A DNA stretch of 64,000 nucleotides from an uncultured virus (IMG/VR IMGVR_UViG_3300021185_001360) (IMGVR_UViG_3300021185_001360), one strand, 5' to 3'. Positions 28,992 to 48,948 are shown, counted from the stretch's first letter. The notes: generated by a model not told the origin, from the sequence alone. Translations and numbers: made by a program.

Positions 28992-29869
28992 ACAGCCATT
29001 GGTGCTTTTATAAACGGTTCCGGGTCATAACCAACAAGTTCAAAGTCTTCCATTTTAAAATCATCTATTGATTCTACAGTTCTGTTGATTTTTAATTTAG
29101 GGTATGGTTTAGCAGTTCTACCTAATTGTGTTTTGATTGCATCACTATGATTGACATATACATGCACATCACCAAAGATATGATTCAGTTCACCTACACC
29201 TAGTTTGCATACATGTGCAATCATATATGTTAATAAAGAATATGATGCAATGTTAAATGGAACTCCTAAGAATAAATCTGCACTACGTTGGTACATGTTA
29301 CAATGTAATCTATTATCATTGGATACATAAAACTGTGCCATAGTATGACATGGAGGTAAAGCCATCATATCTATATCACTTGGATTCCATGCATTAAGAA
29401 TATGCCTACGTGATTGTGGATTCTCTTTAATACCTTTTATTAGTTCAGCTATCTGGTCAACTCTACGTCTAGCACCGTTGTATGAGCGCCATTGGACGCC
29501 ATATACGGGTCCTAAGTTCTTTTCTGTATCAGTGTTAGTAAAGCCTAAGTCTTTGCCTTGATTATCTGCATTAGCAGTCCAGATAGTATTCTTGTCTATA
29601 AGTTCTTCTCTAGGTTTACCATAATGAATTTCTGCTAGTCTACGTTCATCACTGGAACCTTCTAAGAACCAAAGTAGTTCACTGAGTACTGCTTTAAAGT
29701 TTACTTTCTTTGTAGTTAGTAGGGGATATCCAGCTTCTAATTCAAAGTTTAAATGTGAAAAAAACTTACTACGAGTTCCGGTACCAGTTCTTTCTTGGTC
29801 TCTTAGTTCTCCTTGGTTGATAACATAGTATAGCAGTTCTAAATATTCTTCTTCACTCCAATTAGACAT
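28988..29869 (-). CDS. thyA: Thymidylate synthase
   Basis: ELLWFL, GPVYGVQWR, ALPPCH, YQRSAD, PFNIASY. Confidence 0.97.
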   Translation of the reverse strand: MSNWSEEEYLELLYYVINQGELRDQERTGTGTRSKFFSHLNFELEAGYPLLTTKKVNFKAVLSELLWFLEGSSDERRLAEIHYGKPREELIDKNTIWTANADNQGKDLGFTNTDTEKNLGPVYGVQWRSYNGARRRVDQIAELIKGIKENPQSRRHILNAWNPSDIDMMALPPCHTMAQFYVSNDNRLHCNMYQRSADLFLGVPFNIASYSLLTYMIAHVCKLGVGELNHIFGDVHVYVNHSDAIKTQLGRTAKPYPKLKINRTVESIDDFKMEDFELVGYDPEPFIKAPMAV

Positions 29870-30332
29870 TCTTATTCCTCATTTTACTTTTTCTATTTAC
29901 TCTTTCAACATATACAACAGCCCGTTTTAACATATCGATATCGTCATAAAATCCACCAAGTGTTCTGTTACATTTATGACATAGCCAACCTTTGAATTCA
30001 TCTGTATCATGGTCATGGTCTACACACCAAACACTGCGATTCTTTCCGCCTATCCCTTGTAACTCTTGTTCGTTCTTTAAACATATAGGACAACAAAAAT
30101 CTTTAGCAGGTCTTACGTGTTGTTTTCTAAGTCTGGCTCTGACTGTTTGTAAATGCTTTTCGCATTTTTTACATTCATGTCTTTGTTTTCGTATACCAAA
30201 GTTTATTCCCCAACTAAAATTGTCAGATTCCAATATCTCATTGCATTTGGAACATTGTTTAAAAGTTGTTTCTGGTTCTTTATCACCATCGAAAAGATTA
30301 TTAAAGCTATTCAATTCTCTGCCACACTTCAA
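29862..30332 (-). CDS. Endonuclease VII-family (HNH-like) nuclease, possible homing endonuclease
   Basis: CPIC...VDHDH.T..KGWLC.KCN..LG; N-terminal CxxC pairs. Confidence 0.8.
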   Translation of the reverse strand: MKCGRELNSFNNLFDGDKEPETTFKQCSKCNEILESDNFSWGINFGIRKQRHECKKCEKHLQTVRARLRKQHVRPAKDFCCPICLKNEQELQGIGGKNRSVWCVDHDHDTDEFKGWLCHKCNRTLGGFYDDIDMLKRAVVYVERVNRKSKMRNKNV

Positions 30333-30831
30333 ATGTACAATGGGGTTCCGGGTGTGGGTTTAATTCTTTACTTGCTGTTAATTGTGTATAATCTTTTAAA
30401 TAAGTTGTTATATCACATGTAGTATCCACTGAATGAACACCATCTATCCTTGTCAAATAAATCTTATCACAAAATTTATAAGCATCATCGTATAAGTGTT
30501 TACCACCAATGATGAATATTTCTTTACTAGGGTGTCTTGATTGAATTGCAGTAACAATATTTTCTAATGAATATTCTGTATGGTCATATAAATCATGGGC
30601 ACCTGTGAATTCATCCATACTCTTAGATGTTATTACGTAATTAATTCTATTCTTAAGTGGGGCTATTTTGCCTAAACTTTTCCATGTATTTGAACCCATA
30701 ACAACTACATTATCTGTAGTATGTTCCGAAAACCATTTCAAGTCTCGTTTGATTTTAGCCCAAGGTAAATCGTTGTTATAACCAATGCCACCGTAACTAT
30801 CAGCGGCGAGAATCATATTAGTCGCCATCAT
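30307..30831 (-). CDS. folA: Dihydrofolate reductase
   Basis: GIG..NDLPW, DLKWF, VVMG..TW.S, PL.NR.N, FIIGG. Confidence 0.93.
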   Translation of the reverse strand: MMATNMILAADSYGGIGYNNDLPWAKIKRDLKWFSEHTTDNVVVMGSNTWKSLGKIAPLKNRINYVITSKSMDEFTGAHDLYDHTEYSLENIVTAIQSRHPSKEIFIIGGKHLYDDAYKFCDKIYLTRIDGVHSVDTTCDITTYLKDYTQLTASKELNPHPEPHCTFEVWQRIE

Positions 30832-32454: not shown

Positions 32455-32997
32455 TTATGCTATAATTTTCACGTATTCTTCCGGCCAATCCAGATATCTG
32501 AGCCAAACCTGGTGCCTGACTTTCATTGTAAAATTCTTTTGAGCCATTAAACTAAAGAAATTTGGTTTGATTGGTGTTTTGACTGGCTTAATATCAGTAC
32601 GTGAGCCTTTAGTTGTATTACATTTTTTACATGCCGTCACCATATTTTCCCAACCAGACTTACCACCTTTGGATCTAGGTTTAACATGGTCCAAAGTCAA
32701 GTCTTTATGATTAAAAGAATCCAAACAATATTGACAAGTGTAATGGTCACGTATGAATACATTTTTACGTGAAAAGTTTATACCTTCTCTATCTTGGGAT
32801 ACATATTCACGTACTGCAATTACGGCAGGAACTTTCATAGTATGACTAGGCGAATGTACTTCCCAATCATCATGCCATTCTAATACATTAATTTTATCCA
32901 ACCAAATGAGTTTAATACTTTCTTGCCATGTTAAAGTAGAAAGTGGCGAGAGGCATAAAGGTTTGTAGTCCGCATTTAGTAGTAAGGTATCGCTCAT
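32455..32997 (-). CDS. HNH endonuclease (McrA-like)
   Basis: LLLNADY.PL, RD.YTCQYC, TLDHV.PRSKGG..WEN.V.AC..CN..KG. Confidence 0.9.
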   Translation of the reverse strand: MSDTLLLNADYKPLCLSPLSTLTWQESIKLIWLDKINVLEWHDDWEVHSPSHTMKVPAVIAVREYVSQDREGINFSRKNVFIRDHYTCQYCLDSFNHKDLTLDHVKPRSKGGKSGWENMVTACKKCNTTKGSRTDIKPVKTPIKPNFFSLMAQKNFTMKVRHQVWLRYLDWPEEYVKIIA

Positions 32998-33046: not shown

Positions 33047-34393
33047 TTATGCGGCTTCTTTGTGGTAGTAAGCGTGTTCACCGAACGGTGGGACGATTGA
33101 GTCACTGCCATGAATTACAAATAGTGTATCACAGTAATTTGGATTACCCCAACTACCAAATGGGTATCCATCAGTAAACATTACAAACTTATCAGGATTG
33201 ATATCGTTTTGTTCCATGAAGTTAAAGTTACATTCAAAATCAGTACCACCTCCACCAACGATTTCATAATCTTTGATTTCTTCTTGGTTCATCGGAGTAA
33301 ACTCCTTGAATGAAAATTCATTAACCTCAGTATCGAAAGTCCAAACTCTAAGTCTAAAGTCCTGAAACTGTTGCATGATGCCTCCAACTTCACCCATGAA
33401 GTCAGCTAACATTTTATTATCAATAGAACCTGAAACATCAAGTCCGATACCTAAGTCAACCATAGTATCATTGTCTTGACCTGGAAGATAAACACCCATA
33501 GACCTAGATTTCCTTGATTGACGCATCCATGTAAAATCTGATTTAAGTAAACTTAAAATAGATGTATTAAGTAACTGTCGCCAATCCATTTTAGGTTCTG
33601 TCATAGACTTAACAAGTCTTTTGATATCACCAGGCATATTACCAGCACCAGCAGTTTGAGCCGCTTGAATAACAGCCTGTTTCATTTGGTCTTTAAGTTG
33701 TTTTGCTTCCTGTTTAGAAATTTTGATAGGCGCTTTACGTCCTGTAGGATCGTTACCACCTGTGCCACCTGTTTCATCATTGCCATTACCCATGATATGT
33801 TGGTCAAGTGTTTTTTTGTCTTCACCTTGACCTGTTTGTTTCAGATGTTGATAAATTTCCTCAGTGTATTTACCATGATACTTAGGATCGAATAGTGCAG
33901 ATTTTGGCATAACACCAATTCTACTTTCAACACAACCTTGATTAACTTTATAGTCAGCGGCTACATTCCAAAGTTGAGCATCACGATCCTCCTCTTCAAA
34001 ATCGAATAGACGACCGCCCTCACCACAATGGTCATATACACAGTGAAGAACCTCATGACCTACTACAAAGTCAATCTCTTCCGGTGTTAGAGTTCTGAAA
34101 AAATCACAGTTATAATAAAAATGTTTGCCATCAACTGCGGCTGTTGGGCACCATTCTGCCTCAACTAGTTTTAATCGTGTAGCAAGTGTACCAAAGAACG
34201 GATGTTTGATAAGCATACGTACTCGACCGCCGACAATCATTTCTTTTACTTCTCGGTCAGTGTATTCGAATACTACGGGTTCTTCTGAATTTTCATCTAC
34301 TTCAATGCCTGCATCTTTCAATACATCATCTACTACTTCATCAACTGTTTTCTGATTTGATACTTGCATGTGAACGTTACCTTTATCTTTCAT
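33047..34393 (-). CDS. Metallopeptidase-like + vWA domain protein (DUF2201-type), MoxR partner
   Basis: PTAAVDG, HEVLH (HExxH), DVSGS MIDAS, GGGTDF, FTDG. Confidence 0.88.
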   Translation of the reverse strand: MKDKGNVHMQVSNQKTVDEVVDDVLKDAGIEVDENSEEPVVFEYTDREVKEMIVGGRVRMLIKHPFFGTLATRLKLVEAEWCPTAAVDGKHFYYNCDFFRTLTPEEIDFVVGHEVLHCVYDHCGEGGRLFDFEEEDRDAQLWNVAADYKVNQGCVESRIGVMPKSALFDPKYHGKYTEEIYQHLKQTGQGEDKKTLDQHIMGNGNDETGGTGGNDPTGRKAPIKISKQEAKQLKDQMKQAVIQAAQTAGAGNMPGDIKRLVKSMTEPKMDWRQLLNTSILSLLKSDFTWMRQSRKSRSMGVYLPGQDNDTMVDLGIGLDVSGSIDNKMLADFMGEVGGIMQQFQDFRLRVWTFDTEVNEFSFKEFTPMNQEEIKDYEIVGGGGTDFECNFNFMEQNDINPDKFVMFTDGYPFGSWGNPNYCDTLFVIHGSDSIVPPFGEHAYYHKEAA

Positions 34394-34402
34394 TATGTAT
34401 AC

Positions 34403-34430
34403 ATATTAACACGATTCGCTGTATTGTCAA
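34403..34430 (-). promoter_or_regulatory. sigma70-type early promoter with GAATC
   Basis: TTGACA-16nt(atacagcGAATCgtgt)-TAATAT. Confidence 0.75.
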
Positions 34431-34612
34431 GTTTTCAATACTTCATTAATCGCATTACGTTCTTTAATTAGTTGTTCCCTGGTTAAAGCAAACTTAGTGT
34501 AATAATCCATATCACTTGTAGTAATCTTATGATATTTACCATCCCTATTGCCTTTTACGTATTTAACTGGCAATGACACATTTGATAGACTAGACAATGT
34601 AAGCACTCCCAA
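34427..34612 (-). CDS. Hypothetical protein, ~61 aa
   Basis: ORF track. Confidence 0.5.
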   Translation of the reverse strand: MGVLTLSSLSNVSLPVKYVKGNRDGKYHKITTSDMDYYTKFALTREQLIKERNAINEVLKT

Positions 34613-34874
34613 TATGAGCAGAAGGTCTATTATGCTCTACCGGCTTAGTAGCATATTCATCTGAACCAGGAACATATACACTTTCCACCATATATTCTAC
34701 ATCTTTTCCTAACATAGGGACTCTAACACCTCTGTCCAATATCTTTTGTATGATATCTTTAGCATGGTCACTATCATAAGCAAACACTGATAATTGGTCA
34801 ACTTCTCCAGCTGGAGCATCAACAGGTCTAATGTTTACTATATAGTCATTTTTTAGCGATTTTAGTGTTATCAT
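34590..34874 (-). CDS. Hypothetical protein, 94 aa
   Basis: ORF behind a TTGACA-16nt-TATAAT promoter (34905-34932). Confidence 0.7.
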   Translation of the reverse strand: MITLKSLKNDYIVNIRPVDAPAGEVDQLSVFAYDSDHAKDIIQKILDRGVRVPMLGKDVEYMVESVYVPGSDEYATKPVEHNRPSAHIGSAYIV

Positions 34875-34955
34875 TTGGTCTCTCTTTATTGTTAATATAC
34901 TTATATTATACTACAGATTTACAACCTGTCAACCTTTTGAGAGATAAAAAACTAA

Positions 34956-36104
34956 TTATTTTATCAAAATACTAGCATTTGTGCCACCAAAACCGAAAGA
35001 ATTGCACAATACAGAGGTTATTTCTGCACGTTCTGACTTACTACGTATGTTTGGACTATAACCTTCTTCAAACGCTTCTACGTTCACCGTAGGCGGTATA
35101 ATAGCGTGTTTTAGAGACATAATAGACATAGCAAGTTCTACAGAACCAGCGGCGCCCATACAGTGTCCTAACTGTGATTTGTTAGCAACTATGGGTACAT
35201 CCTGTAATCCTAATCTATTGATAGCATCTAGTTCCGCATAATCTCCCATAGGTGTTGATGTTCCGTGTACATTAATAAGACTAGGTGTTGTGTCTTTTAA
35301 AGCATCTTTCATGCATTCTTGTACAACCTTGCCGTCAGGATGAGGAGCAACAGTTTGATAGGCATCATTATTGATAGCATAACCATCAATCTCGCATATT
35401 GTATTGTCCGTCTTATGTTTACTCAATAAGAATAACGCACCGCCTTCACTTAATACTAATCCATCACGTTGAGTATCATAAGGTCTTGATGCTTTTTCTG
35501 GTGTATCATTATATTTGGTTGATAAGGCTCTGAGTTTTCCCATCTGTTTGAATGCATCTGGGTGTATAGTTTTATCTACAGAACCTGCTATTACATTATC
35601 TACCATACCCATTTCAATCATCATGGCCGCCCATATAACACTATAGATGCCTGTGCTACATGCAGTCAAGGTCATTGCACTAGCACCAGTTAAACCATAT
35701 TTCATGTTTATATTATGTGCAATCATATCAGGACAATAGTGATAAATGTTATCAGCATTTTCCTTATTTGACTGTAAAATTTCTAAGTACATAGAGAAGC
35801 CCGGAGATACAATAACACCTGTACGACTTTTATCTAATCCATCTAAGTTTATTTGACTTGCTAATGCTAAAGCCCATTGATTTGATTCTGGAAGTCTATC
35901 ACGTTCTGACTCAGTTATGATAGGATATTCTTTTGCATCGAAATGAAACTCTCCAGCTACTTTGCTTCGTGTCCATCTACTTTCATTTGGGTCAAACTTT
36001 GTAATTGGCCCATATGCTACTTTGTTATTGGTAACTCCTTTCCATGTTTCCTGTAAATCACCGAAGGGCGTGAAACATGAAAGGTCGTTAATATATACGG
36101 TCAT
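34956..36104 (-). CDS. fabF: Beta-ketoacyl-ACP synthase (FabF/FabB-type)
   Basis: TACSTG, HGTST..GD, KSQLGHCMGAAG, NSFGFGG: complete Cys-His-His triad. Confidence 0.92.
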   Translation of the reverse strand: MTVYINDLSCFTPFGDLQETWKGVTNNKVAYGPITKFDPNESRWTRSKVAGEFHFDAKEYPIITESERDRLPESNQWALALASQINLDGLDKSRTGVIVSPGFSMYLEILQSNKENADNIYHYCPDMIAHNINMKYGLTGASAMTLTACSTGIYSVIWAAMMIEMGMVDNVIAGSVDKTIHPDAFKQMGKLRALSTKYNDTPEKASRPYDTQRDGLVLSEGGALFLLSKHKTDNTICEIDGYAINNDAYQTVAPHPDGKVVQECMKDALKDTTPSLINVHGTSTPMGDYAELDAINRLGLQDVPIVANKSQLGHCMGAAGSVELAMSIMSLKHAIIPPTVNVEAFEEGYSPNIRSKSERAEITSVLCNSFGFGGTNASILIK

Positions 36105-36876
36105 ATTTTAAATCCGTTGCTATAATGTATTTGATGATTAATCCTGTTGGATCAAATTGATACCACTTCTCTTGTGTAGTGTAACTTAAACTGTTATTAT
36201 GATGGTTATTATGCCAACCTTCACCGAATGTGATTAATGCTAAGAACCAGTTATTCTTACTATCATCACCTGTATCGTGTTCTGGCTTACCAAATATGTG
36301 TAGTAAATGTACAATACCAAATGTACCTACCCAAAATTGATACACGCCTGTAATACCTAATACATATCCCGGTAAGATTGGATCGATAAGAAATAGAATA
36401 ATCATAGCAACTGTAATAATTTGAAAATAATAACGTTGCATAAATCTTACTTGCGGATCCATATATAAGTCTTTAAAAATTCTACGTTCAGGAGGAAAGT
36501 CTTCATAGAAACCCATTAAGTTTTCCCACCATGATTTTTCTCTTGGACTATGTATGTCCATACCTTCTACATCGGAATATTTGTGATGTAATCTATGTCC
36601 ACCTATCGTTGCTAATGGTTTACCTGGAAAGCCTAATGCGCCCCACCAGAGCAATAGTACCTGACGTTTCCTTCCAGTCTGATAACTTCTATGTGCCCAA
36701 TATCTGTGCCAACCTGCAAATCCACCTATCATAGTTGTTATACAACCCCATGCAAACGAGTACCAAAAATACTCTGGTGCGGTTATAATACTAAAGAGTA
36801 ATACCAGGTGCAAAACAATCCATAGTGTTCGCATCTTCCAACCATAAGTATATTTTTCTAGTAGACTTTTAATCAT
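36088..36876 (-). CDS. Membrane fatty acid desaturase (delta-9 type)
   Basis: His boxes HRYWAH, HRLHH, GEGWHNNHH; transmembrane helices. Confidence 0.9.
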   Translation of the reverse strand: MIKSLLEKYTYGWKMRTLWIVLHLVLLFSIITAPEYFWYSFAWGCITTMIGGFAGWHRYWAHRSYQTGRKRQVLLLWWGALGFPGKPLATIGGHRLHHKYSDVEGMDIHSPREKSWWENLMGFYEDFPPERRIFKDLYMDPQVRFMQRYYFQIITVAMIILFLIDPILPGYVLGITGVYQFWVGTFGIVHLLHIFGKPEHDTGDDSKNNWFLALITFGEGWHNNHHNNSLSYTTQEKWYQFDPTGLIIKYIIATDLKYDRIY

Positions 36877-37483
36877 GTTTTTCTATCCTCTCTCCTGTTC
36901 TAAAGTTTCTCCAATTAAACTTCCAAACATCTTGCTTAATCCCATACAATGGGAAATCTTTATGTAATAGAGTTAGCTTATCTTCGTGTGGCCATGCCAC
37001 ATAAGCAAATCTCCATATCTTGTGCATCGTGCCACTTCTATCTTCACTGTGGTCTTGTGATGCTGTTGTAACCACACAATCTGTGGCTCCTTGTTCATGT
37101 GCCCAATCTACCATAAAAGGAACTAATCTTGCAAATCCAAACTCATGATACATTCTTCTAGTATTCTGTCTATCGTCTGCCATATTACGCCACTCAGGTA
37201 GTGTTGCCAATCTATAGTTTATCATATAACATGTATCATGTACATGTGGCAAGTAATGTGCACCTGCCATTGATACTATCTTATCCTCGTGATAAACAAA
37301 CCACCAGTTCTCTTGTGAACCCCATTTGCCAAACTTCAATGCTTTGAGACTAGCATTATTTAGTATACCTGCATCACCACACTTATCGCAGAATTCTTCT
37401 AAGTCTGCTTTTAATGTGCTATCGTATTCTACTACTTTAAATTCGTAACCCTCTGCACCAGTGAATGTTTCTAATACTTTCAT
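36869..37483 (-). CDS. Hypothetical protein, possibly GNAT-fold acyltransferase
   Basis: Coupled ORF; KIVSMAG...YRLATLPEWR..GFARL..WA...GA pattern resembles GNAT motif A. Confidence 0.45.
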   Translation of the reverse strand: MKVLETFTGAEGYEFKVVEYDSTLKADLEEFCDKCGDAGILNNASLKALKFGKWGSQENWWFVYHEDKIVSMAGAHYLPHVHDTCYMINYRLATLPEWRNMADDRQNTRRMYHEFGFARLVPFMVDWAHEQGATDCVVTTASQDHSEDRSGTMHKIWRFAYVAWPHEDKLTLLHKDFPLYGIKQDVWKFNWRNFRTGERIEKHD

Positions 37484-38205
37484 TTCTTAGCCAATAACAT
37501 TGGAATATAATATTTACCAGCCCAATCAGTTAGGTCATCACGTGACATATCAAGTCTTGCTGAATACTTGTGATGTATGTCGTGACATCCCTCTCCCATC
37601 ATCCAGATGTTTGAAAAGCCACCTAATCTAGCAGGCCCACCCTCTTTGTGTGCTGAGAAGTTTAACCAAGTAAGTGCTACCCACATGTGAGTAAAGTTAA
37701 ATGCTTGCCATACAACTAACCACGGGCTGATTATTAAATGTATTAATGTGAATAATGCATATAGTTTCCAATAGTTTCTATCAACATAAACTACATCACG
37801 TTTCTTTAATAGAAAACGTAAACTAATATAATCCTCTGGCGTCTTATAATGTCCTAACCACATTTTCCAGAAGCCTAGGTCAGCTGGATTATGCGTGTCC
37901 TTATCTGTATCTGAATTCTTATGATGATTTAAATGAGAGTACACATATTGTATTGGACTTCCATTTGCACTCATAATAATACCATACAACATTGCATAGC
38001 GTCCTACGATATGAGGAACAAATTGGTCATGACATAACCATCGATGATATGCAATCTGTGACAATGCATTTGTTACACAACCATATAAGGTAAATGTTAA
38101 TGCAAGTTGCCAAGATCCACCTGTAATAAAGTATGCCGGTATACCAATTAAGGTAATTGCTAACATGAAAAATACTTTTACTGTTACTTTATTTTGATAT
38201 GTCAT
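37480..38205 (-). CDS. Second membrane fatty acid desaturase
   Basis: His boxes HRWLCH, HLNHH, GEGCHDIHH. Confidence 0.88.
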   Translation of the reverse strand: MTYQNKVTVKVFFMLAITLIGIPAYFITGGSWQLALTFTLYGCVTNALSQIAYHRWLCHDQFVPHIVGRYAMLYGIIMSANGSPIQYVYSHLNHHKNSDTDKDTHNPADLGFWKMWLGHYKTPEDYISLRFLLKKRDVVYVDRNYWKLYALFTLIHLIISPWLVVWQAFNFTHMWVALTWLNFSAHKEGGPARLGGFSNIWMMGEGCHDIHHKYSARLDMSRDDLTDWAGKYYIPMLLAKK

Positions 38206-39881
38206 TACTTCTTTAGTGATTCCTCTAATACTTCTTCGTGGCTTTTGCCATCAAACAAAAACTTTCTATGCCAATCGTATGCATGTGGAGCCAAATCGCC
38301 TTGTGCCTTACTTAATTTCTTGCAATACTCGAACATTATATCTGCTTTGTCTAACAGTTCTTTCTTAGTATTTAGTTCAACTGAATCATCAAAACACCCC
38401 ATAGCAGTGGCTACATTCATCCACATATAATCAGGATATAAACTATTACCTATATGATTGTCAGGGTTTCTATACTCTTCCCAACATGCTTTGGCATGAT
38501 TGTGCTTCTTGCCATACTCTTTTTGTTTCTTCCAGAAATTAGTATCTTCTCTATTTGATAATGTATAATGATATGCAATAAAGTTTGCAGTATGGTCTTC
38601 TAATTTATTCATACTCTTATTATATGCATGTACACTTCCAGGTGATATAGTTTTATCCTCGTCCCATGCACGTTTTACTAATCTATCTAATATCTGTATG
38701 CCCCATTGTGTTATGTATAATGCATTACCTTCCATTGGTTCAATAAATGAATGACTCATTCCGATGCTTAGTACGTTTTTATTCCAAGGAGTAACCATAC
38801 GTCCTGCCTTCCATGAAATATGTTTTGGTGGTTTGATAAACTCATAACCTTCCCAATATTTCATAAACTTTGCTTTTGCATCTTCGACAGATATTTCAGT
38901 CTTATCAAAAATATAACCTGAACCCATTCTGTTATATAATGAAATAACAAAGTTCCAGCCTTCGTCTTGTGCATACGTTTGTGTATACGGTTTGAATTCG
39001 TTATATATGTCCTTGTACTTTAGTGGACCAACAATAGCATCTTGTGTATGAATAAAATCGTAATCATGCCATTCATTATTCATCCCATCCACTAATACTT
39101 TGTGGAAGCCTGAACAATCGATAAACAAATCACCTTCATGTTCTATGCCATCTTCCATTATTAGTTTTGTAATGTATCCATCCTCATCTTTAATGATATC
39201 TTTGACATCACCAATGGAATGATTAACCCCTTTTGGTATGGCAACTTTATCTCTAATGATTTCTGGAAATCTATTTGCATCTAAATGATATGTATATGCT
39301 GACCAGTCACCGACTAAGCAGTTATCATCCATATCAAATGGTGCCTTGTTACCTTTCATTAAATAATGTTGTTCATGCATATCCTCTGAAAGTTCATTAA
39401 TGTTTTTTCTACCATCACGTACTAATTGCAACCAATAGTCGTTCCACTTATCATTTACTCCGGCTTCGCCTTTAGAATTAGTAAAGTAATCATCTGTAGT
39501 AAGTTGTCCATAAAAACTTCTGGTTAGATGTTTCTCAGGTAGTGCGAATGAAAATGAATAGTATTGTACATCTTCCTTTGGTGCATTCCAATGGTCTGTT
39601 ACATGGTGTCGTTTACCTGGTGTACTCCAACCAACAAATTTGTTACCTAATTTATAAACTGAATTAGTATAACTCATCCAGTCTCTTTCCTCAAGACCCA
39701 TTGTTGATAATAAATCATTTACTTGAGGCACTACACTTTCACCTACACCTATTGTAGGAATGTTATCACTCTCAATTAAAGTAATGTCTAACCACGGGTG
39801 CTTATTTTTCATGTAACCTGCAGTGAACCAACCGTTTATTCCACCACCAACGATTACAAGTTTTTTTAGTTTGGCTTTCAT
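38205..39881 (-). CDS. Flavin-dependent tryptophan-halogenase-family protein
   Basis: VIVGGG.NGW, IGVGES, YKLG.KF.GW, FIDCSGF, FIEPMEG; WxWxIP motif altered to WNFVIS. Confidence 0.85.
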   Translation of the reverse strand: MKAKLKKLVIVGGGINGWFTAGYMKNKHPWLDITLIESDNIPTIGVGESVVPQVNDLLSTMGLEERDWMSYTNSVYKLGNKFVGWSTPGKRHHVTDHWNAPKEDVQYYSFSFALPEKHLTRSFYGQLTTDDYFTNSKGEAGVNDKWNDYWLQLVRDGRKNINELSEDMHEQHYLMKGNKAPFDMDDNCLVGDWSAYTYHLDANRFPEIIRDKVAIPKGVNHSIGDVKDIIKDEDGYITKLIMEDGIEHEGDLFIDCSGFHKVLVDGMNNEWHDYDFIHTQDAIVGPLKYKDIYNEFKPYTQTYAQDEGWNFVISLYNRMGSGYIFDKTEISVEDAKAKFMKYWEGYEFIKPPKHISWKAGRMVTPWNKNVLSIGMSHSFIEPMEGNALYITQWGIQILDRLVKRAWDEDKTISPGSVHAYNKSMNKLEDHTANFIAYHYTLSNREDTNFWKKQKEYGKKHNHAKACWEEYRNPDNHIGNSLYPDYMWMNVATAMGCFDDSVELNTKKELLDKADIMFEYCKKLSKAQGDLAPHAYDWHRKFLFDGKSHEEVLEESLKK

Positions 39882-39883
39882 TT

Positions 39884-41248
39884 TTACTCCACAAATTGTT
39901 CTTTGACTACGTGTCTCTGAACTTTGCCCATAGGATTTCTAGGTAGTGGATCTTTGGTAATAACAATTTCTTTAGGTAATTCATACTGAAATAATTTATC
40001 TTTAACAAAGTCCATCAACTCAAGACTATTTATCTCACTGTCCGCACTGACTACTGCAACAATTTCTTTTTCCCCTAGTCCTCTATCACGATATGTAACA
40101 CAAACTTCGTTAACCTCTTCATGAGGTAATAACATATTTTCAATTTTAATAGGCGATACATTGAAACTGTTTACTTTTATTAAATCTGTTTTACGTGATT
40201 TATAAAATAAAAGATTATGCTGAGTTTCTAATACATCACCAGTACACCAATAGCCATCATCATCTATAGGTGTTTCTTGATTCAGATATCCTTCTGTAAC
40301 ACAACTACCTTTAATCCAAGCAACACCATATCTATCTAATTTGAAATCATAGTTATCAGTAATATGAATTTGTAAAGGATGTGGATCATCTGGAGTTGCC
40401 AAGTGTGTAAACATTGGTACATGTGTTTCAGTACAGCCATACAAGTTTCTTAATGCAGGTGCACCTTTATCAAATAGTTCTTGTAGCATTTCTTCCGGAC
40501 AAACTGTACTACCAAAACCTAACTCACGCCAATGAGACAAGTCTGCGTCTTTCCAACCACGTGTCTTAGACAGGGCCAACATCATTGCAGGAACCATAAT
40601 ACCTATCGTAGGTTTCATTTCGTTACAAATCTTAATAAACTTTCTGGGATTAAACATTTCACAAATTACTGTACACCCTTTCATTAAACCAGGAAGTGTA
40701 TAAAGATACAGACCACCAATAGTCCAAGGAGGAAGTTGTGAGAGTATTACATCATCAGATGTTAAAGTTTGAATTAGAATGTTTTGTATTGAGCCTTGGA
40801 CACATGCCATTCTAGTATGTGGGACTGCCTTAGGCTCTCCTGTAGTACCGCTAGTAAATATAACAGTATATAAATCATCTGCACCTTTGGCAAATACTAA
40901 TCCTTTGTTATGAGGTTTTAGATTAGATGCATCATCCTCATTTAGAATAATATGATTTGGTTTACTGGCATTCTCAATACGAGATACCATACCTTCAGTT
41001 AGATTTGGCATAGTGGGCATGAATGTGACTCCTAACATATCACAAGCTAATACCATTCTTACATAATGATATTCTTTTTCACTTGAAAATAGTAGACGCT
41101 CACCAGGCCTGATGGCAGTAGACAACGTAGCACCTAGTTTTTCAACACTGGTGATTAGTTCGTTGTATGTATAACTCTTATCGTGGCAAATCAGGGCAGT
41201 CTTGCTACCGTGATTCTTTGCCTGTGCTTTTATTGTTTCCCAAATCAT
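39884..41248 (-). CDS. Adenylate-forming (ANL) acyl-CoA/acyl-ACP ligase
   Basis: FTSGTTGEPK, YGCTE, TGD, LPRNPMGKV. Confidence 0.92.
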   Translation of the reverse strand: MIWETIKAQAKNHGSKTALICHDKSYTYNELITSVEKLGATLSTAIRPGERLLFSSEKEYHYVRMVLACDMLGVTFMPTMPNLTEGMVSRIENASKPNHIILNEDDASNLKPHNKGLVFAKGADDLYTVIFTSGTTGEPKAVPHTRMACVQGSIQNILIQTLTSDDVILSQLPPWTIGGLYLYTLPGLMKGCTVICEMFNPRKFIKICNEMKPTIGIMVPAMMLALSKTRGWKDADLSHWRELGFGSTVCPEEMLQELFDKGAPALRNLYGCTETHVPMFTHLATPDDPHPLQIHITDNYDFKLDRYGVAWIKGSCVTEGYLNQETPIDDDGYWCTGDVLETQHNLLFYKSRKTDLIKVNSFNVSPIKIENMLLPHEEVNEVCVTYRDRGLGEKEIVAVVSADSEINSLELMDFVKDKLFQYELPKEIVITKDPLPRNPMGKVQRHVVKEQFVE

Positions 41249-41253
41249 ATCTA

Positions 41254-41282
41254 ATTATAACAAAAAAAGGGAGAGAAGTCAA
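41254..41282 (-). promoter_or_regulatory. sigma70-type promoter, likely leaderless transcript for the lipid operon
   Basis: TTGACT-17nt-TATAAT, 5 nt before the ligase ATG. Confidence 0.7.
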
Positions 41283-41296
41283 CACCTCTCTCCCTT
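41262..41296 (-). terminator. Intrinsic terminator after MoxR
   Basis: 10-bp stem AAGGGAGAGA/TCTCTCCCTT plus U-tract. Confidence 0.75.
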
Positions 41297-41319
41297 AAAA
41301 CGCAATAAAGTGTCTGCTC

Positions 41320-42474
41320 TTATGCGTTATGAGCCTCGATAATTAGCTTACCGTATTTCTTAAAGAACTCCTCGATACAAGGAACCTTCCTAGGCTCAAG
41401 TGGAAGTTTGTAAACTTTTAGTGCAGTACGACCACCTAGAACAATCATTTCAGTTTCAAAGTTATCCATCATGAACCTGAAAAAGTTATCAGCCATTTTG
41501 TACAACTCATCCATTTTGCCTTTGTTTTTCTCTGCATGTTCTTTCAACTCATAACATAGTGAAGCAGTTAGTGAGAACATAGCTGAGATTTCCTTAGCTT
41601 CCCTAGACACCGTTTTTACCTTACCATTTAAGATATCAGTTGGATTAGGAAGTTTACCAGAAATTGCTCGGTGAGCCATAAACTTAGTAGCAACACCATC
41701 ACCAACAGTACCAGCAATTAAGTCATGCAGTTTACTATCATCGATATTTTCATCTTTCATTGGCATCAACTGTGATGCAAAAGTCCATGAACGAGGAGTT
41801 GCGAAAGCCCGTGATGCAGTTCGTGGGTCAAAGTTAAACAAGTCCATCTTATTAGATGTTAAGTAACCAACAACATCAGAATGGATTTTGTTTTCAAGAG
41901 CCCAAGTCTGCCAATCTTCAAAGTCAACACCCATTTCTAAGTGAACGAAACGGTTAGCAAGTGGGCTTGGCATACGATAAGCAACACCTCTATCACTCTC
42001 ACGGTTACCAGCGGCAACAATAAGAACATTATCAGGTAGAGTGTAATTACCTAGACGCCTGTTAAGAATAAGTTGATAAGCCGCCGCTTGTACTGATTGC
42101 GGTGCTTGGTTCATTTCATCTAAAAACAATACAATGTTTTCAAACTGGTCAGCAAGTTCCTGACTAGGCAAATCAGACGGTGTCGCCCAATCCATAGTAT
42201 TTGTTTTCTCATTATAGTATGGGATACCTCGTAAATCAGTAGGTTCCATAAGAGCAAGTCGTAAGTCAATCATATAACCTGAACGCTCTTGTGTGATTGA
42301 ATCAACAATCTCAGATTTACCTACTCCCGGAGGACCCCAAATAAAGACGGGTCGTTGACGATTAAAAGCATAATTAATTTCAGCTTTAATATCACTCGGA
42401 CGTACAATTCGTACATCCATATCATTCATTGAAACTTGTGCAGACATATTTTCATTTCCTTTGTTTTGTATCAT
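41320..42474 (-). CDS. MoxR-like AAA+ ATPase
   Basis: GPPGVGKS Walker A, LFLDE Walker B, AAGN, PLANRF; start may be 42447. Confidence 0.9.
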   Translation of the reverse strand: MIQNKGNENMSAQVSMNDMDVRIVRPSDIKAEINYAFNRQRPVFIWGPPGVGKSEIVDSITQERSGYMIDLRLALMEPTDLRGIPYYNEKTNTMDWATPSDLPSQELADQFENIVLFLDEMNQAPQSVQAAAYQLILNRRLGNYTLPDNVLIVAAGNRESDRGVAYRMPSPLANRFVHLEMGVDFEDWQTWALENKIHSDVVGYLTSNKMDLFNFDPRTASRAFATPRSWTFASQLMPMKDENIDDSKLHDLIAGTVGDGVATKFMAHRAISGKLPNPTDILNGKVKTVSREAKEISAMFSLTASLCYELKEHAEKNKGKMDELYKMADNFFRFMMDNFETEMIVLGGRTALKVYKLPLEPRKVPCIEEFFKKYGKLIIEAHNA

Positions 42475-42481
42475 TAACTAT

Positions 42482-42509
42482 ATAATAGCACGATTCGTGA
42501 TTCTGTCAA
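42482..42509 (-). promoter_or_regulatory. sigma70-type early promoter with two GAATC sites
   Basis: TTGACA-16nt(GAATCacGAATCgtgc)-TATTAT. Confidence 0.75.
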
Positions 42510-42538
42510 GTTTTTTGACCTAAATAAATGAAGTTTTT

Positions 42539-42928
42539 TTAAATTATATTGGAAATGCCATATATGGTGTGTTTTTGCTCAACCCAGTCTTGTAATCCAA
42601 GTAAGGATATCTCTGCGGCTATGCTTTCTTCAAACACTCGTAATCTATGGTTAGTAAGGATATATGGACTGTTAAGGTATCGGTCTAAGACGAGAATCAT
42701 CTTACCCGTTTGGTCAATCTTAAGATTGATACCAACTGAATTAGTATTTTTGATTACGTACTCTTTGAAATGTGACTTTAGTATACCAGCACCAAATGAT
42801 GTTAATCTAAAGTTCTTATCATTTTCAGAAGAACTAATGAAAATATCATTTGTACGAAACTCTTTACGGCCTGCTTTTCGACCTTTAGTGTTATCATTCA
42901 GATACTTTATTAGTTCATCTTTTAACAT
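42539..42928 (-). CDS. Hypothetical protein, 129 aa
   Basis: ORF in operon order. Confidence 0.7.
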   Translation of the reverse strand: MLKDELIKYLNDNTKGRKAGRKEFRTNDIFISSSENDKNFRLTSFGAGILKSHFKEYVIKNTNSVGINLKIDQTGKMILVLDRYLNSPYILTNHRLRVFEESIAAEISLLGLQDWVEQKHTIYGISNII

Positions 42929-43304: not shown

Positions 43305-44576
43305 TTACTTGCCTCGTGGTGTGTTCCTTTGGTCAAGCCAGCCTTGCAATTCTACTCTGTCTTTTTCAGTAAGTATAAAACTAAATTCAAGTTCTTCGTA
43401 CCCAGTAAATTCATCACCACGCTTAACTTTAAGTGTCATTGTTTCACCCGGAAACGAATGCAGACCTTCTTGCATAATATTCATGGGTCCGTATACTTTT
43501 TTACCATTTATCTCTAAAAAGAAATCACCAGTACGCAATCCAGCTTCATAGGCTGATGAATCTTCATTATCATCCATGAATGCATACATCATATGCCTGT
43601 CCTCTCTAGGCAAATCTAACATTTCCATTTCTTTTAATTCTTCATATGTATATATTTTAAATGTAAAAGGAAGTTCGGCATATGGTACCCAATCAACTAC
43701 GTCTGAAACATGAGTTTCTAAAATGTAATTCATTGCACGTTGGGCAATCTCAGATTGAACAGCTAATCCAACACCATCCCATCCTGGTATTGCTCTACCT
43801 GGTGACAAAATACTTAGTATAACACCTGCAACTTTGCCGTCTGTAGTTATAACAGGACCTCCACTATTGCCTTGATTGACAACTGCATCTACTTGTAGAT
43901 GTAATGTATAAGGACCAGTACCAAATCTATTTACATATGTAATTGCACCTACACTCGCAGTATATGGTAAAGACATTCCATGACCAATGACAACAACTGG
44001 ATCACCTTCTGTTATATCTTTTCTGGAATCTTCTATAAATTCTAATGCTTCCCATTCTTCATTATCTTTCTTTTCAATTTTAATAACTGCAATATCGGCA
44101 ACTGGATCAAACCCAATGATTTCACCGTCATACGGCCACCATTCAGTTGCAGTGTTTATTTGAAGTTTAAGATTTAATGGAAGTTCTGATTTGCGTTCTA
44201 TAACATGATAGTTTGTTACAATGTAAGCATGTTTATCTGTTACTTTGGCAAAGAAGCCCGTGCCCTGCCCGCCTAGATTTTGCACAAATGCATTATCTGA
44301 TGGCATGAGTTTTACCTGTACGATACTCTTATAGCTACGGTTGATTGCGTGTTTAATGTCACGTTCACCATCGAATCCCTTGCCATTAAATACGACACCA
44401 TTAAGGTCATACAGAAAATCACCTGTATCTCGTCCAAACTGGTCGTATGACCAGCCTATTCCTTTATGTATGGATTCTTGTATCTCTCTTACATATGAAT
44501 TAGTAACAAATGAAAACACCACTGCCACTAATAATAACCCTGACCACTTTAACAACTTCTTCATCATTAGAATCAT
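43305..44576 (-). CDS. HtrA/DegP-like serine protease with PDZ domain and N-terminal membrane anchor
   Basis: TNYHV, DIAV, GNSGGP triad motifs; AGLRTGD..LEING PDZ. Confidence 0.9.
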   Translation of the reverse strand: MILMMKKLLKWSGLLLVAVVFSFVTNSYVREIQESIHKGIGWSYDQFGRDTGDFLYDLNGVVFNGKGFDGERDIKHAINRSYKSIVQVKLMPSDNAFVQNLGGQGTGFFAKVTDKHAYIVTNYHVIERKSELPLNLKLQINTATEWWPYDGEIIGFDPVADIAVIKIEKKDNEEWEALEFIEDSRKDITEGDPVVVIGHGMSLPYTASVGAITYVNRFGTGPYTLHLQVDAVVNQGNSGGPVITTDGKVAGVILSILSPGRAIPGWDGVGLAVQSEIAQRAMNYILETHVSDVVDWVPYAELPFTFKIYTYEELKEMEMLDLPREDRHMMYAFMDDNEDSSAYEAGLRTGDFFLEINGKKVYGPMNIMQEGLHSFPGETMTLKVKRGDEFTGYEELEFSFILTEKDRVELQGWLDQRNTPRGK

Positions 44577-45350: not shown

Positions 45351-46322
45351 TTATTTTTCGTTGATTTGACGTTCAAATTCTCTTAAACGTTTGAATACAC
45401 TCATTAACTCAATAAGTGTTGGCCATGCTTTAAATAGATATTGAAGTGAGCCTTCTACTCTACCAAATGCACGAATAATCTGTTGCATTACACCAAGTGT
45501 TACAACGCCTGCTACAATAGCCGGTGCTAAGAACACATAAGCACTTAGTACGTTTGCTTGTAAGTATGTAATACGTCCTACATTAAAATACAAATAACGC
45601 AAGTAAGATTTAAAGTGAATACTACGAACGCCATCAAACAATTCGTTAATAGTCTTTGGTCTCACAGTTTCATCATCTTCTGCAATAACTAATATCTTTC
45701 GATATGCGGCTTCTTTCTTTTGTAAGTCATATTCAACTCCTACTAATCGTAGTAACCAACCTAGTCCAATTAAGAATAGTGTACCACCTACTGACCAAAC
45801 AATAGCACCTGTAATCAATCCATATTGCCAATCTCCAAAGAAGAAGATAGGAATACCTACTGATAAACCAAATAGAATAGGAACGAACTGAACTAGAACC
45901 ATAATCGATTCAATAAAACTTGTACCTAGTCCTTCCATAATACGACTAAACTTAATAGTATCTTCTTGTACCCTTTGTGCGGCACCTTCAATAGTTCTTG
46001 CTTTATCATATACTGAATGATACCATTCAACCATTGCCGTACGCCATCTAAACAAATAGTGTGCTGTAAAGTAACTTACTAGCACTGCAATAGCAACATA
46101 TATCATTGCTAGATAGATAAACGTTCCTAAGCTGGCCCAATATTCACCTATAGTGATTGCATTAGGTGTTGCTAAAGCCGTTTGAATCATATCATAAAAC
46201 TGACCAAACCATTCGTTAATCTTAACATCAATCTCAACTTGTATCCAGAGTGATGATAAGATTAATGCTGACCCTAACCAGGCCCATAAGGACCATTTCT
46301 TTTCTGTAAAAAATCTAAACAT
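45351..46322 (-). CDS. sbmA: SbmA/BacA-family peptide transporter
   Basis: Multi-TM; INEW...FYDMIQ, FRWR.AM, IEGAAQRVQEDT, EAAYRK.LV.AED, AF.RV.GS.QY. Confidence 0.85.
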   Translation of the reverse strand: MFRFFTEKKWSLWAWLGSALILSSLWIQVEIDVKINEWFGQFYDMIQTALATPNAITIGEYWASLGTFIYLAMIYVAIAVLVSYFTAHYLFRWRTAMVEWYHSVYDKARTIEGAAQRVQEDTIKFSRIMEGLGTSFIESIMVLVQFVPILFGLSVGIPIFFFGDWQYGLITGAIVWSVGGTLFLIGLGWLLRLVGVEYDLQKKEAAYRKILVIAEDDETVRPKTINELFDGVRSIHFKSYLRYLYFNVGRITYLQANVLSAYVFLAPAIVAGVVTLGVMQQIIRAFGRVEGSLQYLFKAWPTLIELMSVFKRLREFERQINEK

Positions 46323-47076
46323 TTTCTTTTCCTTTTAATATTTCCCAAGTATCTTTATAGCTTTCTACTTGATAACTCTTTCCATTTACCAATAGCTTCA
46401 CTGCTTCTGATATATCATAATCGTTACCACCATGCATAGTCTTATCACCTATAAAGATAATTTCATCTAAATCATTAAAATCTTTAATGATTTGCTGTTT
46501 TCCTTTACCTACTGGCATAATATCTAGCCCTGTCTCACCGGCTACTTGGGCTACTACTTTCTCTGAAACCATAAAATTATCGTTGAATTTCTTTGCGATA
46601 GTCCAACGTTCTTTTGTTTCAGTGTCATACTTTACGTATTCTTCTCTTTGTTCCGTTGTTGCACCCCTGCCAACAACACTAAAATTCATTAGACCTGGCC
46701 TTGCATCAAAATGATTACCAGTTCTAGTAGTAAATTCACTTTGGAATAACTCTCTATCCAAAAACAACTGAGGTACTTTTGCTAATACCCAATCGTTGTT
46801 ATATATGTTGATGCCGTTTTCCCATACTGAATTACCGCTACAATTATATACTCTTTCTACTGAGTTAAATAAGTCTTGTCCTATTTGTTCAATAGTTTTT
46901 GGTGCATCACTTCCTGTGGCTAAGTATACTTTATTTTCTTTTATGAATTCATTGAAAAATTCTAGGAACTCTGGATCTATTTTACCCCTACTTGGTGTTA
47001 AGGTTCCATCAACATCAAATATGTATTTGCGGTTCATGTTCTTGAATGCCTCAATATCTTCATTAGTTATATTCAT
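46315..47076 (-). CDS. HAD IIB phosphomannomutase-like enzyme (eukaryotic PMM-type)
   Basis: FDVDGTLT..R, TGSD, R.G.MNFS..GR, GDK...GGNDY. Confidence 0.75.
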   Translation of the reverse strand: MNITNEDIEAFKNMNRKYIFDVDGTLTPSRGKIDPEFLEFFNEFIKENKVYLATGSDAPKTIEQIGQDLFNSVERVYNCSGNSVWENGINIYNNDWVLAKVPQLFLDRELFQSEFTTRTGNHFDARPGLMNFSVVGRGATTEQREEYVKYDTETKERWTIAKKFNDNFMVSEKVVAQVAGETGLDIMPVGKGKQQIIKDFNDLDEIIFIGDKTMHGGNDYDISEAVKLLVNGKSYQVESYKDTWEILKGKENV

Positions 47077-47080
47077 TATA

Positions 47081-48082: not shown

Positions 48083-48114
48083 TAGTAGATCCTCTTAGTT
48101 TTATATACAGTACT

Positions 48115-48143
48115 AGAATAACACACTTTGTGTTACTTGTCAA
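48115..48143 (-). promoter_or_regulatory. sigma70-type promoter
   Basis: TTGACA-17nt-TATTCT. Confidence 0.6.
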
Positions 48144-48604: not shown

Positions 48605-48609
48605 AATTA

Positions 48610-48948
48610 TTATCCTTTCAATTCAGGCACTGCCTGTATTAATTCGTCAATCCCTCCCTTGATATAAAGCATATTCTTATATCCATTATTCTTAAGATAC
48701 TTTGTTACTTGTTCTGACTTTGTACTGTCTTGGCATAAAATCAAACACACAATATGTGTAGGCGCCATTTCAATTTGGTCAGGTATTTCATACATTGAAA
48801 TATTAAACGTTTGTTTAACAACTCCTGCACTTTTACGTTCTTCTGTATCTCTGATATCGACAAGAATATAATCTTGTTTCTCATACCATTCATCAACGAA
48901 TTCTGTAACTGTAATTCCTAAAATTTCTTCATTAGTTTTATAAAACAT
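48610..48948 (-). CDS. Single-domain rhodanese-like protein
   Basis: LVDIR..EE...G, LCQD..KS, YL...GY.N...I.GGI. Confidence 0.75.
   Translation of the reverse strand: MFYKTNEEILGITVTEFVDEWYEKQDYILVDIRDTEERKSAGVVKQTFNISMYEIPDQIEMAPTHIVCLILCQDSTKSEQVTKYLKNNGYKNMLYIKGGIDELIQAVPELKG

Follow-up and report, generated by a model that had tools for sequence, protein, structure and literature searches.

A swappable cargo operon of uncultured marine jumbo phages that may elaborate a viral ligase and GNAT-fold gene pair into a modified-acyl pathway

Six minus-strand open reading frames (ORFs) lie packed in positions 34956 to 41248 of a 64,000-nucleotide (nt) stretch of DNA from an uncultured virus (IMG/VR IMGVR_UViG_3300021185_001360; the whole stretch that was analysed is called the window). 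We propose, at a probability of about one half, that they form an accessory biosynthetic operon of a phage, carried as swappable cargo between a MoxR gene and a VWA-like gene, and that this operon elaborates a two-gene kernel, encoding an adenylate-forming ligase and a GNAT-fold protein here named X204, into a modified-acyl pathway. To this kernel the phage lineage would have added a flavin-dependent halogenase, a FabF-type ketosynthase (KS) and zero to two SCD-type desaturases.

Results

Six genes with intact catalytic motifs

In the order of transcription, the operon encodes an adenylate-forming (ANL) ligase with both subdomains (LIG; 454 amino acids (aa), positions 39884 to 41248; PF00501 and PF13193), a flavin-dependent Trp-halogenase-family enzyme (HAL; 558 aa, 38205 to 39881; PF04820, E = 4.3e-88), a short membrane di-iron desaturase-family protein (DES1; 241 aa, 37480 to 38205; assigned by the PF00487 matches of its homologues and its histidine set), a GNAT-fold protein with a presumed acyl-transfer step (X204; 204 aa, 36869 to 37483; assigned by AlphaFold2, Foldseek and VIA-align), an SCD/delta-9-type membrane desaturase (DES2; 262 aa, 36088 to 36876; PF00487, E = 3.4e-11) and a FabF-like elongating ketosynthase with a Cys-His-His triad (KS; 382 aa, 34956 to 36104; PF00109 and PF02801), all on the minus strand. 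A gap of 2 nt separates the first two genes, and the following junctions overlap by 1, 4, 8 and 17 nt. An earlier note on this DNA had named the same six genes; its order, with the two desaturases side by side, has to be replaced by the one given here, in which the GNAT-fold gene stands between them. GC content was even across the cassette. Compared with a relative that is 85 to 91% identical (locus L020), the ratio of nonsynonymous to synonymous substitution rates was 0.063 to 0.115 for all six genes (flanking MoxR, 0.070; VWA, 0.114), and all of them are under purifying selection.

LIG exceeded the cutoffs of both ANL domains (PF00501, E = 6.4e-47 and 160.6 bits against 29.9; PF13193, E = 1.8e-07 and 32.4 bits against 24.5), and TSGTTGEPK, YGCTE, YWCTGD and a C-terminal GK were read in its translation, so that the N domain, the C-terminal subdomain and the core motifs including the C-terminal Lys are all found. 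LIG reached no NCBIfam equivalog cutoff, the best model being the long-chain-fatty-acid--CoA ligase PRK06187 (207.6 bits versus a cutoff of 476). Its clade is at least 51% identical internally, and the next proteins, which are MenE, fatty-acyl and aryl-CoA ligases, reach 29% at most.

HAL scored 296.6 bits against PF04820 and matched the Trp 5-, 6- and 7-halogenases of the PDB (E of about 1e-57) and cyanophage VirX1 (6qgm; 7e-49). Among the phage halogenase homologues, GxGxxG, the FAD site, and the Lys that we presume to be catalytic were present in 11/11 and the final Glu of the EPxE motif in 10/11; the HAL Lys aligned with the Lys of YKL in the PDB Trp halogenases. Between close cassettes, the halogenase alone had been swapped: it is 65% identical to that of the window in L019 and L046 and 85% identical in L020 and L047, while ligase, X204 and KS of all four are 87 to 93% identical to the window, which suggests an allele exchange inside the operon.

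KS carries the N and C domains of ketoacyl synthases (PF00109, E = 2.5e-26; PF02801, E = 1.3e-26), with TACSTG (the Cys), HGTST and GHCMGAAG. In the alignment with its best PDB match (4jga; 8e-57), TACSTG, HGTST and GHxxGAAG were conserved, which gives the full Cys-His-His triad. Its score against the fabF model TIGR03150 (256.8 bits; cutoff, 493.75) stayed below equivalog-level similarity to housekeeping FabF. When 185,579 bacterial and archaeal species genomes were searched with a profile, KS was 30 to 40% identical to the best 80 bacterial loci, and 0/80 of these had a ligase, halogenase, X204 or desaturase neighbour.

DES2 aligned over its whole length (residues 8 to 260) with mouse SCD1 (4ymk; E = 7e-20) and has the histidine boxes HRYWAH, HRLHH and HNNHH. 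DES1 had no Pfam match of its own and matched SCD1 weakly (E = 0.025); PF00487 was carried by 3/13 of its homologues, and it cross-matched DES2 (E = 1e-15). Ten invariant histidines were common to DES1 and DES2 in an alignment of 17 sequences, in the order HxxxxH, HxxHH, a single His that follows box 2, another in a late helix, and HxxHH, and by this measure DES1 is assigned to the desaturase family despite the missing Pfam match. Both proteins thus carry the ordinary SCD1-type histidine set, that is, three boxes plus extra di-iron histidines. The intact catalytic motifs claimed by the earlier note for the ligase, both desaturases and KS could be seen in translations and alignments, and the enzymes of the cassette look active.

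In a tblastn search of GenBank phages with DES2, a homologue was found in Pelagibacter phage Mosig (25.5% identical), the other matches being two records that resemble bacterial assemblies (31.4%). In Mosig, an isolated SAR11 phage (EXVC030M; L287, 51696 to 68298), the gene of the short homologous desaturase (hhalign, 99.9%) shares an island, directly beside tail-fibre genes, with those of an aminotransferase, a flavin mononucleotide (FMN) reductase, dioxygenases, a methylase and a GNAT that is possibly a remote X204 relative (hhalign, 86.6%).

X204, a GNAT-fold protein of a viral family

The protein that had been listed as unknown and GNAT-like is predicted to adopt the GNAT fold. Its AlphaFold2 model (mean predicted local distance difference, pLDDT, 91.9; predicted template modelling score, pTM, 0.88) gave 172 Foldseek matches in the PDB at E ≤ 0.001 (best, about 1e-5), GNATs throughout among the matches listed, and VIA-align Z scores of 10.2 to 11.7 for 50 entries. 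X204 scored 14.6 bits against Acetyltransf_1 (cutoff, 20.7), a cutoff exceeded by 1/50 family members scanned (P0062), and it had no detectable sequence relation to any named GNAT family. Naming a subfamily by fold was tried and given up, FeeM (Z = 10.5) being tied with dozens of generic GNATs; acyl-homoserine lactone synthases and SbzI were not among the fold matches listed.

Of 1.84 billion proteins searched with the X204 family profile, 212 representatives matched (133 of them at E ≤ 1e-10), none functionally named; the ten that were looked up were all metagenomic. In the ESM Atlas, X204 fell among unnamed viral clusters only, with PF00583 on 20% of members in one cluster. A scan of the 185,579 bacterial and archaeal species genomes that used only two peptide patterns gave no relative of X204, and neither X204 nor its distant relative P0038 had a match in GenBank phages. 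The family is known only from viral and metagenomic data. Prediction of a LIG-X204 complex scored 0.00 in two runs whose controls were not folded, and says nothing on binding either way.

A cargo site between MoxR and VWA

The operon is flanked upstream by a gene for a MoxR-type AAA+ ATPase (41320 to 42474, minus strand; phrog_1297, E = 8.7e-101) and downstream by one for a DUF2201 metallopeptidase-like, VWA-like MoxR partner (33047 to 34393, minus strand; PF13203, E = 3.4e-36; PF09967, E = 2.8e-15). We surveyed this junction in 80 MoxR-anchored IMG/VR loci (L042 to L121), 56 of which had both flanks, the other 24 being cut by contig ends; cassette genes were called by tblastn at E ≤ 1e-8 and coverage of at least 50%. 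MoxR was 79 to 100% identical in the first 64 of the 80 loci and about 60% identical in most of the rest. Different samples often yielded near-identical contigs, and the counts therefore refer to loci, not to independent lineages.

Among the 56 complete loci, 17 had an empty junction, with 70 to 193 bp between MoxR and VWA; small unrelated inserts of 0.8 to 1.9 kb occupied it in 11 (including a 568-aa acyl-CoA dehydrogenase in L109), other ligase-based cargo in 3 (L062, L069 and L097), and the set of ligase, halogenase, X204 and KS in 25. Uncultured marine jumbo phages have a cargo hotspot in the MoxR-VWA junction (window 34393 to 41320), and the earlier expectation that the genes co-occur in other genomes was borne out by the 25 loci. 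At the E value used, no complete locus had a halogenase or KS match without the other three core genes. Since no such partial set was seen, ligase, halogenase, X204 and KS form the core, with the desaturases as extras. In every cassette compared, the ligase gene adjoined the halogenase gene. Desaturases numbered none in 12, one in 5 and two in 8 of the 25 complete cassettes; a single one stood before X204 in four loci and after KS in one, and Pfam found no further desaturase among the extra ORFs of L024 and L028. Desaturases had entered the cassette repeatedly, at three different positions, and are an optional, dispensable part of it. Some variants carried an HD-domain gene, EF-hand-like ORFs or ORFs without a Pfam assignment after KS and before VWA.

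That the segment might be a misassembled host fragment, a doubt raised with the earlier note, is answered by the occurrence of the same cassette between the same phage genes in many independent viral contigs, and a complete genome of 342,607 bp with terminal repeats (G002) carries it at the same place. The window holds many phage replication and nucleotide-metabolism genes, and its T4-type family-B DNA polymerase was closest (41 to 48%) to those of jumbo phages of 350 to 490 kb (Phosso, Atu_ph07, GAP32 and similar). A scan of the window for tRNA genes as clues to the host found none. A functional link of the cassette to MoxR and VWA (metal-cofactor insertion) was considered and set aside because the pair is adjacent and conserved in 17 loci without cargo.

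A nucleotide search of GenBank phages with the cassette gave no match. By tblastn, KS matched 28 and the ligase 37 GenBank phage records, all below 60% identity (co-location of the two within a record was not checked); those listed are FabF/FabB-like, acyl/MenE-type or unannotated, and we took them to be host-like genes. The best halogenases in GenBank phages were cyanophage genes (26 to 33%; P-TIM40, 32.5%; Syn10, 29.2%).

The ligase-X204 pair in other viral loci

The oldest part of the cassette is the pair of a ligase and an X204-like gene, which recurs in many other viral contigs. At the MoxR-VWA junction itself, L069 and L097 held a ligase gene without the C-terminal subdomain (341 to 369 aa), an X204-like gene overlapping its stop codon, a DUF6356 gene and a second AMP-binding fragment, in place of which L059, cut at a contig end, had a class IV aminotransferase gene; L062 held a truncated ligase gene plus ORFs of no assigned family. 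The truncated ligases form a consistent family. In a separate survey of 79 viral loci with an X204-like gene, an AMP-binding gene, mostly in a short form (211 to 251 aa), was found in 58 and adjoined the X204-like gene in 27; several of the 21 loci without a ligase end early at contig ends. Also present in the 79 were DUF6356 (50 loci), class IV aminotransferase (36), Trp-halogenase (13), desaturase (1) and KS (0), and a GMP-reductase-like protein and a sulfotransferase were further neighbours. For the aminotransferase partners, the branched-chain, D-amino-acid and aminodeoxychorismate-lyase models of NCBIfam scored alike, all far below their cutoffs.

G002 has a second pair, a short AMP-binding gene and an X204-like gene (hhalign, 99.5%), 38 kb from its cassette (L124, 13810 to 15043), which lies beside sulfotransferase-like and QueC-like genes. 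In a metagenomic protein of 578 aa (P0153), a whole ligase is fused to an X204-like domain, which, as a singleton, is weak evidence for the pairing.

Promoter, terminator and RNA libraries

Ahead of the ligase gene lies a promoter (41254 to 41282, minus strand) with TTGACT, a 17-nt spacer with an extended TG, and TATAAT, matching 11/12 consensus positions. Its −35 hexamer is nested within the intrinsic terminator of the MoxR gene (41267 to 41296, minus strand), which is read from the sequence as a 13-bp stem, a 4-nt loop and a T run. The −10 hexamer ends 5 nt ahead of the ligase ATG, and the operon mRNA is therefore leaderless or nearly so. The top three promoter matches in positions 34300 to 42600 were all intergenic. 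ORF, promoter and terminator analyses together confirmed the earlier description of six abutting or overlapping genes under their own promoter, overlapping the MoxR terminator.

The operon stretch was present in 22 seawater runs recorded as RNA. In 4/4 runs examined, the contigs covering the operon ended at 41227 to 41238, contigs over the 3′ end of MoxR stopped at 41300 and 41311, and one contig covered 35524 to 41228. The contig ends at 41227 to 41238 are a weak hint at a start there, and a contig break in four studies exactly at the predicted terminator and promoter is a fair hint that the operon is transcribed from that point. In RNA-library contigs of 3/4 runs, a joint skipped 465 nt within the MoxR gene (window 41469 to 41935), its shorter side being only 21 nt; it may come from related strains or from assembly.

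Carrier proteins and other genes of the window

None of the six operon proteins matched PP-binding, and Pfam found no acyl carrier protein (ACP) or thioesterase domain in the six genes or their immediate flanks and no rubredoxin in the cassette. G002 encodes three PP-binding proteins and one AcpS-type phosphopantetheinyl transferase (PPTase), all outside the cassette; two of the three ACP genes adjoin radical S-adenosylmethionine (SAM) enzyme genes, and one is AcpP-like. A third desaturase-like gene of G002 lies near a pair of ACP and radical-SAM genes (L123, 4062 to 8117), and the AcpS-type gene (L125, 3978 to 4391) near GreA-like and GMP-reductase-like genes.

Positions 5094 to 28991 of the window form a second, larger biosynthetic-looking island, which resembles the tailoring islands of cyanophages and pelagiphages. 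Its plus-strand run encodes 8 radical-SAM proteins (3 with SPASM) and 3 Asp/Arg-hydroxylase-type cupins; the island also has genes for a carbamoyltransferase (7747 to 9312), a 1522-aa protein of no family (9350 to 13918) and an aminotransferase (27340 to 28374). Thymidylate synthase and dihydrofolate reductase genes follow at 28988 to 30831, and an HNH endonuclease gene (32455 to 32997, minus strand) lies just downstream of VWA.

Between KS and VWA, a 94-aa ORF of no known family (34590 to 34874, minus strand) has its own sigma70-type promoter at 34932 to 34905 (12/12 consensus positions) and a Shine-Dalgarno-like AAGAGAG ahead of it. It was matched only in loci 100% identical to the window (L045, L049 and L095 among the complete loci) and is probably outside the pathway. 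Upstream of MoxR on the minus strand are genes for an HtrA-like trypsin/PDZ protease (43305 to 44576), an SbmA/BacA-like inner-membrane transporter domain protein (45351 to 46322; PF05992, E = 8.6e-140) and, at 46315 to 53931, host-like metabolic enzymes (phosphomannomutase, 5′-3′ exonuclease, rhodanese, phosphoribosyltransferase, SAM synthetase at 48952 to 50097, and GTP cyclohydrolase I at 51133 to 51834).

Discussion

The gene content of the cassette, its intact motifs, its co-inheritance, the purifying selection on it and its presence in seawater RNA libraries, with contig breaks at the predicted promoter and terminator, are shown; every chemical step of the pathway is one that we infer. 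LIG would activate a carboxylic acid, most likely a fatty acid, as acyl-adenylate and load it onto a thiol carrier, which could be coenzyme A (CoA), a host ACP or an ACP of the phage lineage encoded elsewhere together with an AcpS-type transferase. KS would extend the acyl group by C2 with malonyl-ACP, and the desaturases, where present, would add cis double bonds. X204 would move the acyl group to an amine acceptor (an amino acid, an aromatic amine or a peptide), and HAL would place a halogen on an electron-rich aromatic group, either in the acceptor or in the product. For the GNAT-like X204, the hand-over of an acyl group to an amine, lipid or protein that the earlier note supposed would still be the most plausible step, and the expected product would be a halogenated N-acyl amino-acid-like lipid or a lipidated peptide. 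A bolder version goes further than we would readily follow and is held only tentatively: ligase and X204 would be an unrecognised amide-forming system spread by viruses, the cassette would be the first phage pathway to a halogenated lipopeptide or lipo-amino acid, and the product would be made in the course of lytic infection, where it would serve either to attach lipid to a peptide or protein of the phage or host or as a bioactive or signalling lipid released into seawater.

Several observations weigh against a modified-acyl pathway of this kind. The distance of LIG from fatty-acyl, aryl and MenE-type CoA ligases is about the same. HAL lacks the second Trp of WxWxIP, reading W-x-F-x-I-S in the window; W-x-F-x-I-S/T/P was found in 7/7 cassette halogenases, and W-x-W was kept in the other four phage halogenases compared. 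The Q/RxxGxG/A loop of X204, which we take to be the canonical CoA-binding loop of GNATs, is degenerate, and its fold matches are generic GNATs with no prominent acyl-chain-specific subgroup (FeeM, Z = 10.5, versus a top Z of 11.7). By Pfam, an ACP, an acyl-ACP thioesterase, a flavin reductase and a precursor peptide are all missing from the cassette, though precursors were not searched for systematically. The ACP of the window (5094 to 5327, minus strand), offered in the earlier note as a partner of the operon, is start/stop-coupled to a radical-SAM gene (5327 to 6253, minus strand) 30 kb away and belongs to that pair, outside the operon. In most other viral loci, the X204-like gene comes without a KS or desaturase gene and amid genes for Asp/Arg-hydroxylase-type cupins (dioxygenases), radical-SAM/SPASM and B12-radical-SAM enzymes, and methyltransferases; the substrate of the ligase-X204 kernel may therefore not be a fatty acid. 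As for transcription, carry-over of DNA into RNA libraries is possible, and the contigs do not prove a single transcript through the operon.

One rival takes as the acceptor a peptide made on the ribosome or a protein of the phage or host; the cassette would then attach a lipid to a peptide, virion or envelope protein and halogenate one of its Trp residues. We regard this as unlikely, if the least so of the rivals. GNATs that acylate peptides are described for GdvG, LpvE and the selidamide enzymes (in the part of bioRxiv 10.1101/2023.10.25.564083 drawn on here), X204-like genes often lie among sets typical of peptide tailoring (cupins, radical-SAM/SPASM and B12-radical-SAM enzymes, and methyltransferases), a set of this kind also occupies 6281 to 28991 of the window, and the short desaturase of Mosig lies in a similar island beside tail-fibre genes. 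However, neither a precursor peptide nor a gene for leader recognition was seen within or beside the cassette, where precursors were not searched for systematically, and the class IV aminotransferase that is often a partner speaks for free amino or keto acids; the cassette halogenases are also nearest to free-Trp halogenases in the PDB, although this does not fix their substrate. A slightly smaller chance goes to a set of independent auxiliary metabolic genes that remodel host membrane lipids (an extra FabF, a FadD/Aas-like ligase and delta-9 desaturases), to which the halogenase and the acetyltransferase would be unrelated passengers. In the part of PMC5776448 used here, phage delta-9 desaturases that occur singly and alter host lipids are described, KS resembles FabF and has its full triad, close packing is usual for phage genes anyway, and the same junction carries an acyl-CoA dehydrogenase in more distant phages (L109). 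Against this, the core genes come and go as one: all four stand in 25 complete loci, with no partial halogenase or KS set, and ligase and X204-like genes recur together in distant viral contexts. KS and LIG are at most 40% and 29% identical to housekeeping enzymes, well under the NCBIfam cutoffs, and the optional part of the cassette is the desaturases, the genes that most resemble auxiliary metabolic genes.

The ligase might instead activate an aryl or amino acid, halogenated or not, which KS would condense with malonyl-ACP to a beta-keto product that X204 modifies or detoxifies. The matches of LIG to feruloyl-, 4-coumarate- and benzoate-CoA ligases and to MenE are indeed about as good as those to fatty-acyl ligases, its gene always adjoins that of the halogenase, and the kernel often comes with an aminotransferase. 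Yet SCD-type desaturases, here recruited repeatedly at three positions, act on long acyl chains, a FabF-type KS normally takes acyl-ACP primers, and Pfam found no ketoreductase, dehydratase, cyclase or thioesterase in the cassette; we think this starter a little less probable again than unconnected auxiliary genes. The earlier note had gone for a route modelled on JamABC or polyyne clusters, by which a ligase, desaturases and an ACP would yield an acyl chain with a terminal alkyne or a conjugated polyyne and perhaps a halogen. Its notion of a phage-borne, co-occurring unit has held. A ligase and two membrane desaturases do share one operon, a halogenase is present, and ACPs and a PPTase exist elsewhere in the phage lineage. 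The alkyne route is nevertheless unsupported because the cassette has no carrier protein or thioesterase and because the desaturases are optional, being absent from 12 of the 25 complete cassettes and single in 5. Rubredoxin is missing as well, the histidines of both desaturases follow the plain pattern of SCD1, the one reference compared, to which DES2 aligns over its full length, and the invariant KS and X204 would be left unexplained, all of which makes an alkyne or polyyne product highly improbable.

If the modified-acyl pathway that we favour yields a discrete product, it would show that viruses autonomously make halogenated lipids in the ocean, would give a function to a viral protein family that counts at least 212 representative clusters, and would provide a compact part set for lipid-amide biosynthesis. 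Phage auxiliary genes are usually single enzymes from the primary metabolism of the host; here a giant marine phage of lytic type keeps a multi-enzyme operon that, as predicted from its genes, unites acid activation, chain extension, desaturation, halogenation and acyl transfer. Three of its proteins are without close cellular relatives, LIG at no more than 29% identity, KS at no more than 40% (best 80 loci) and the GNAT-fold protein with none found. The ligase-X204 kernel and the MoxR-VWA site also form a clean natural experiment, with empty, minimal, core and core-plus-desaturase versions, from which the contribution of each gene could be worked out. As the earlier note had supposed, no phage operon of this make-up was found to be described, either among GenBank phages or in the full-text literature as searched without supplements.

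The cassette can be set beside several known systems. Ligases and membrane desaturases act on a fatty acyl chain from one operon in JamABC and polyyne biosynthesis; jamaicamide is also halogenated, and a bacterial polyyne cluster combines a fatty acyl-AMP ligase with an ACP, several desaturases and a thioesterase. Unlike these clusters, the cassette has no ACP or thioesterase, its desaturases are optional, and what is invariant is the halogenase, the GNAT-fold protein and KS. As in the SbzL/SbzG/SbzI system, of which SbzL is presumably the adenylating enzyme and SbzG the carrier protein, the cassette pairs an ANL-type ligase with a GNAT-fold enzyme, which would move a thioester-bound acyl group to an amine, and both X204 and SbzI are GNATs that stand apart from the ordinary acetyl-CoA families. 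GNATs that move acyl groups from a carrier protein or from CoA to amines or peptides are known precedents. SbzI is a carrier-protein-dependent GNAT that forms an amide in altemicidin biosynthesis, according to the part of PMC11685415 used. Unlike the Sbz system, the cassette lacks a carrier protein, has added a halogenase, KS and desaturases, and belongs to a phage.

GNATs also attach acyl groups derived from fatty acid synthases (FAS) or polyketide synthases (PKS) to peptides, as in goadvionin (GdvG, with an ACP-bound donor), lipoavitide (LpvE) and the selidamides. In such hybrids of FAS/PKS products with peptides that ribosomes make and that are modified after translation, as far as the part of bioRxiv 10.1101/2023.10.25.564083 used here extends, a stand-alone KS-type enzyme builds the acyl group and a GNAT passes it to a peptide amine, an arrangement like the one proposed for the cassette, and the examples are all bacterial, whereas the cassette is phage-borne. 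It differs further in having a KS of the FabF rather than the FabH type and no precursor peptide or core enzyme of such peptides seen beside it.

Marine phages are described as carrying Trp-halogenase-family genes in variable tailoring clusters, with predicted halogenated products derived from amino acids (Iyer et al. 2010, PMC2938197, and 2021, PMC7824862), and halogenated amino acids joined to fatty acids were noted by Iyer et al. in 2010 (PMC2938197). The cassette resembles these cyanophage halogenase/dioxygenase islands and VirX1 in having a Trp-halogenase-family gene in a marine phage; for the islands, the parts of the same two papers drawn on here name no ligase, KS, desaturase or X204-type gene. 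Cyanophage delta-9 desaturases (vFAD) alter host lipids (Roitman et al. 2017, PMC5776448, in the part used), and the desaturases of the cassette are likewise phage-encoded di-iron membrane enzymes of the SCD/DesC type. The vFAD genes described there are single auxiliary genes, whereas those of the cassette are short (241 to 262 aa), embedded in an operon and optional.

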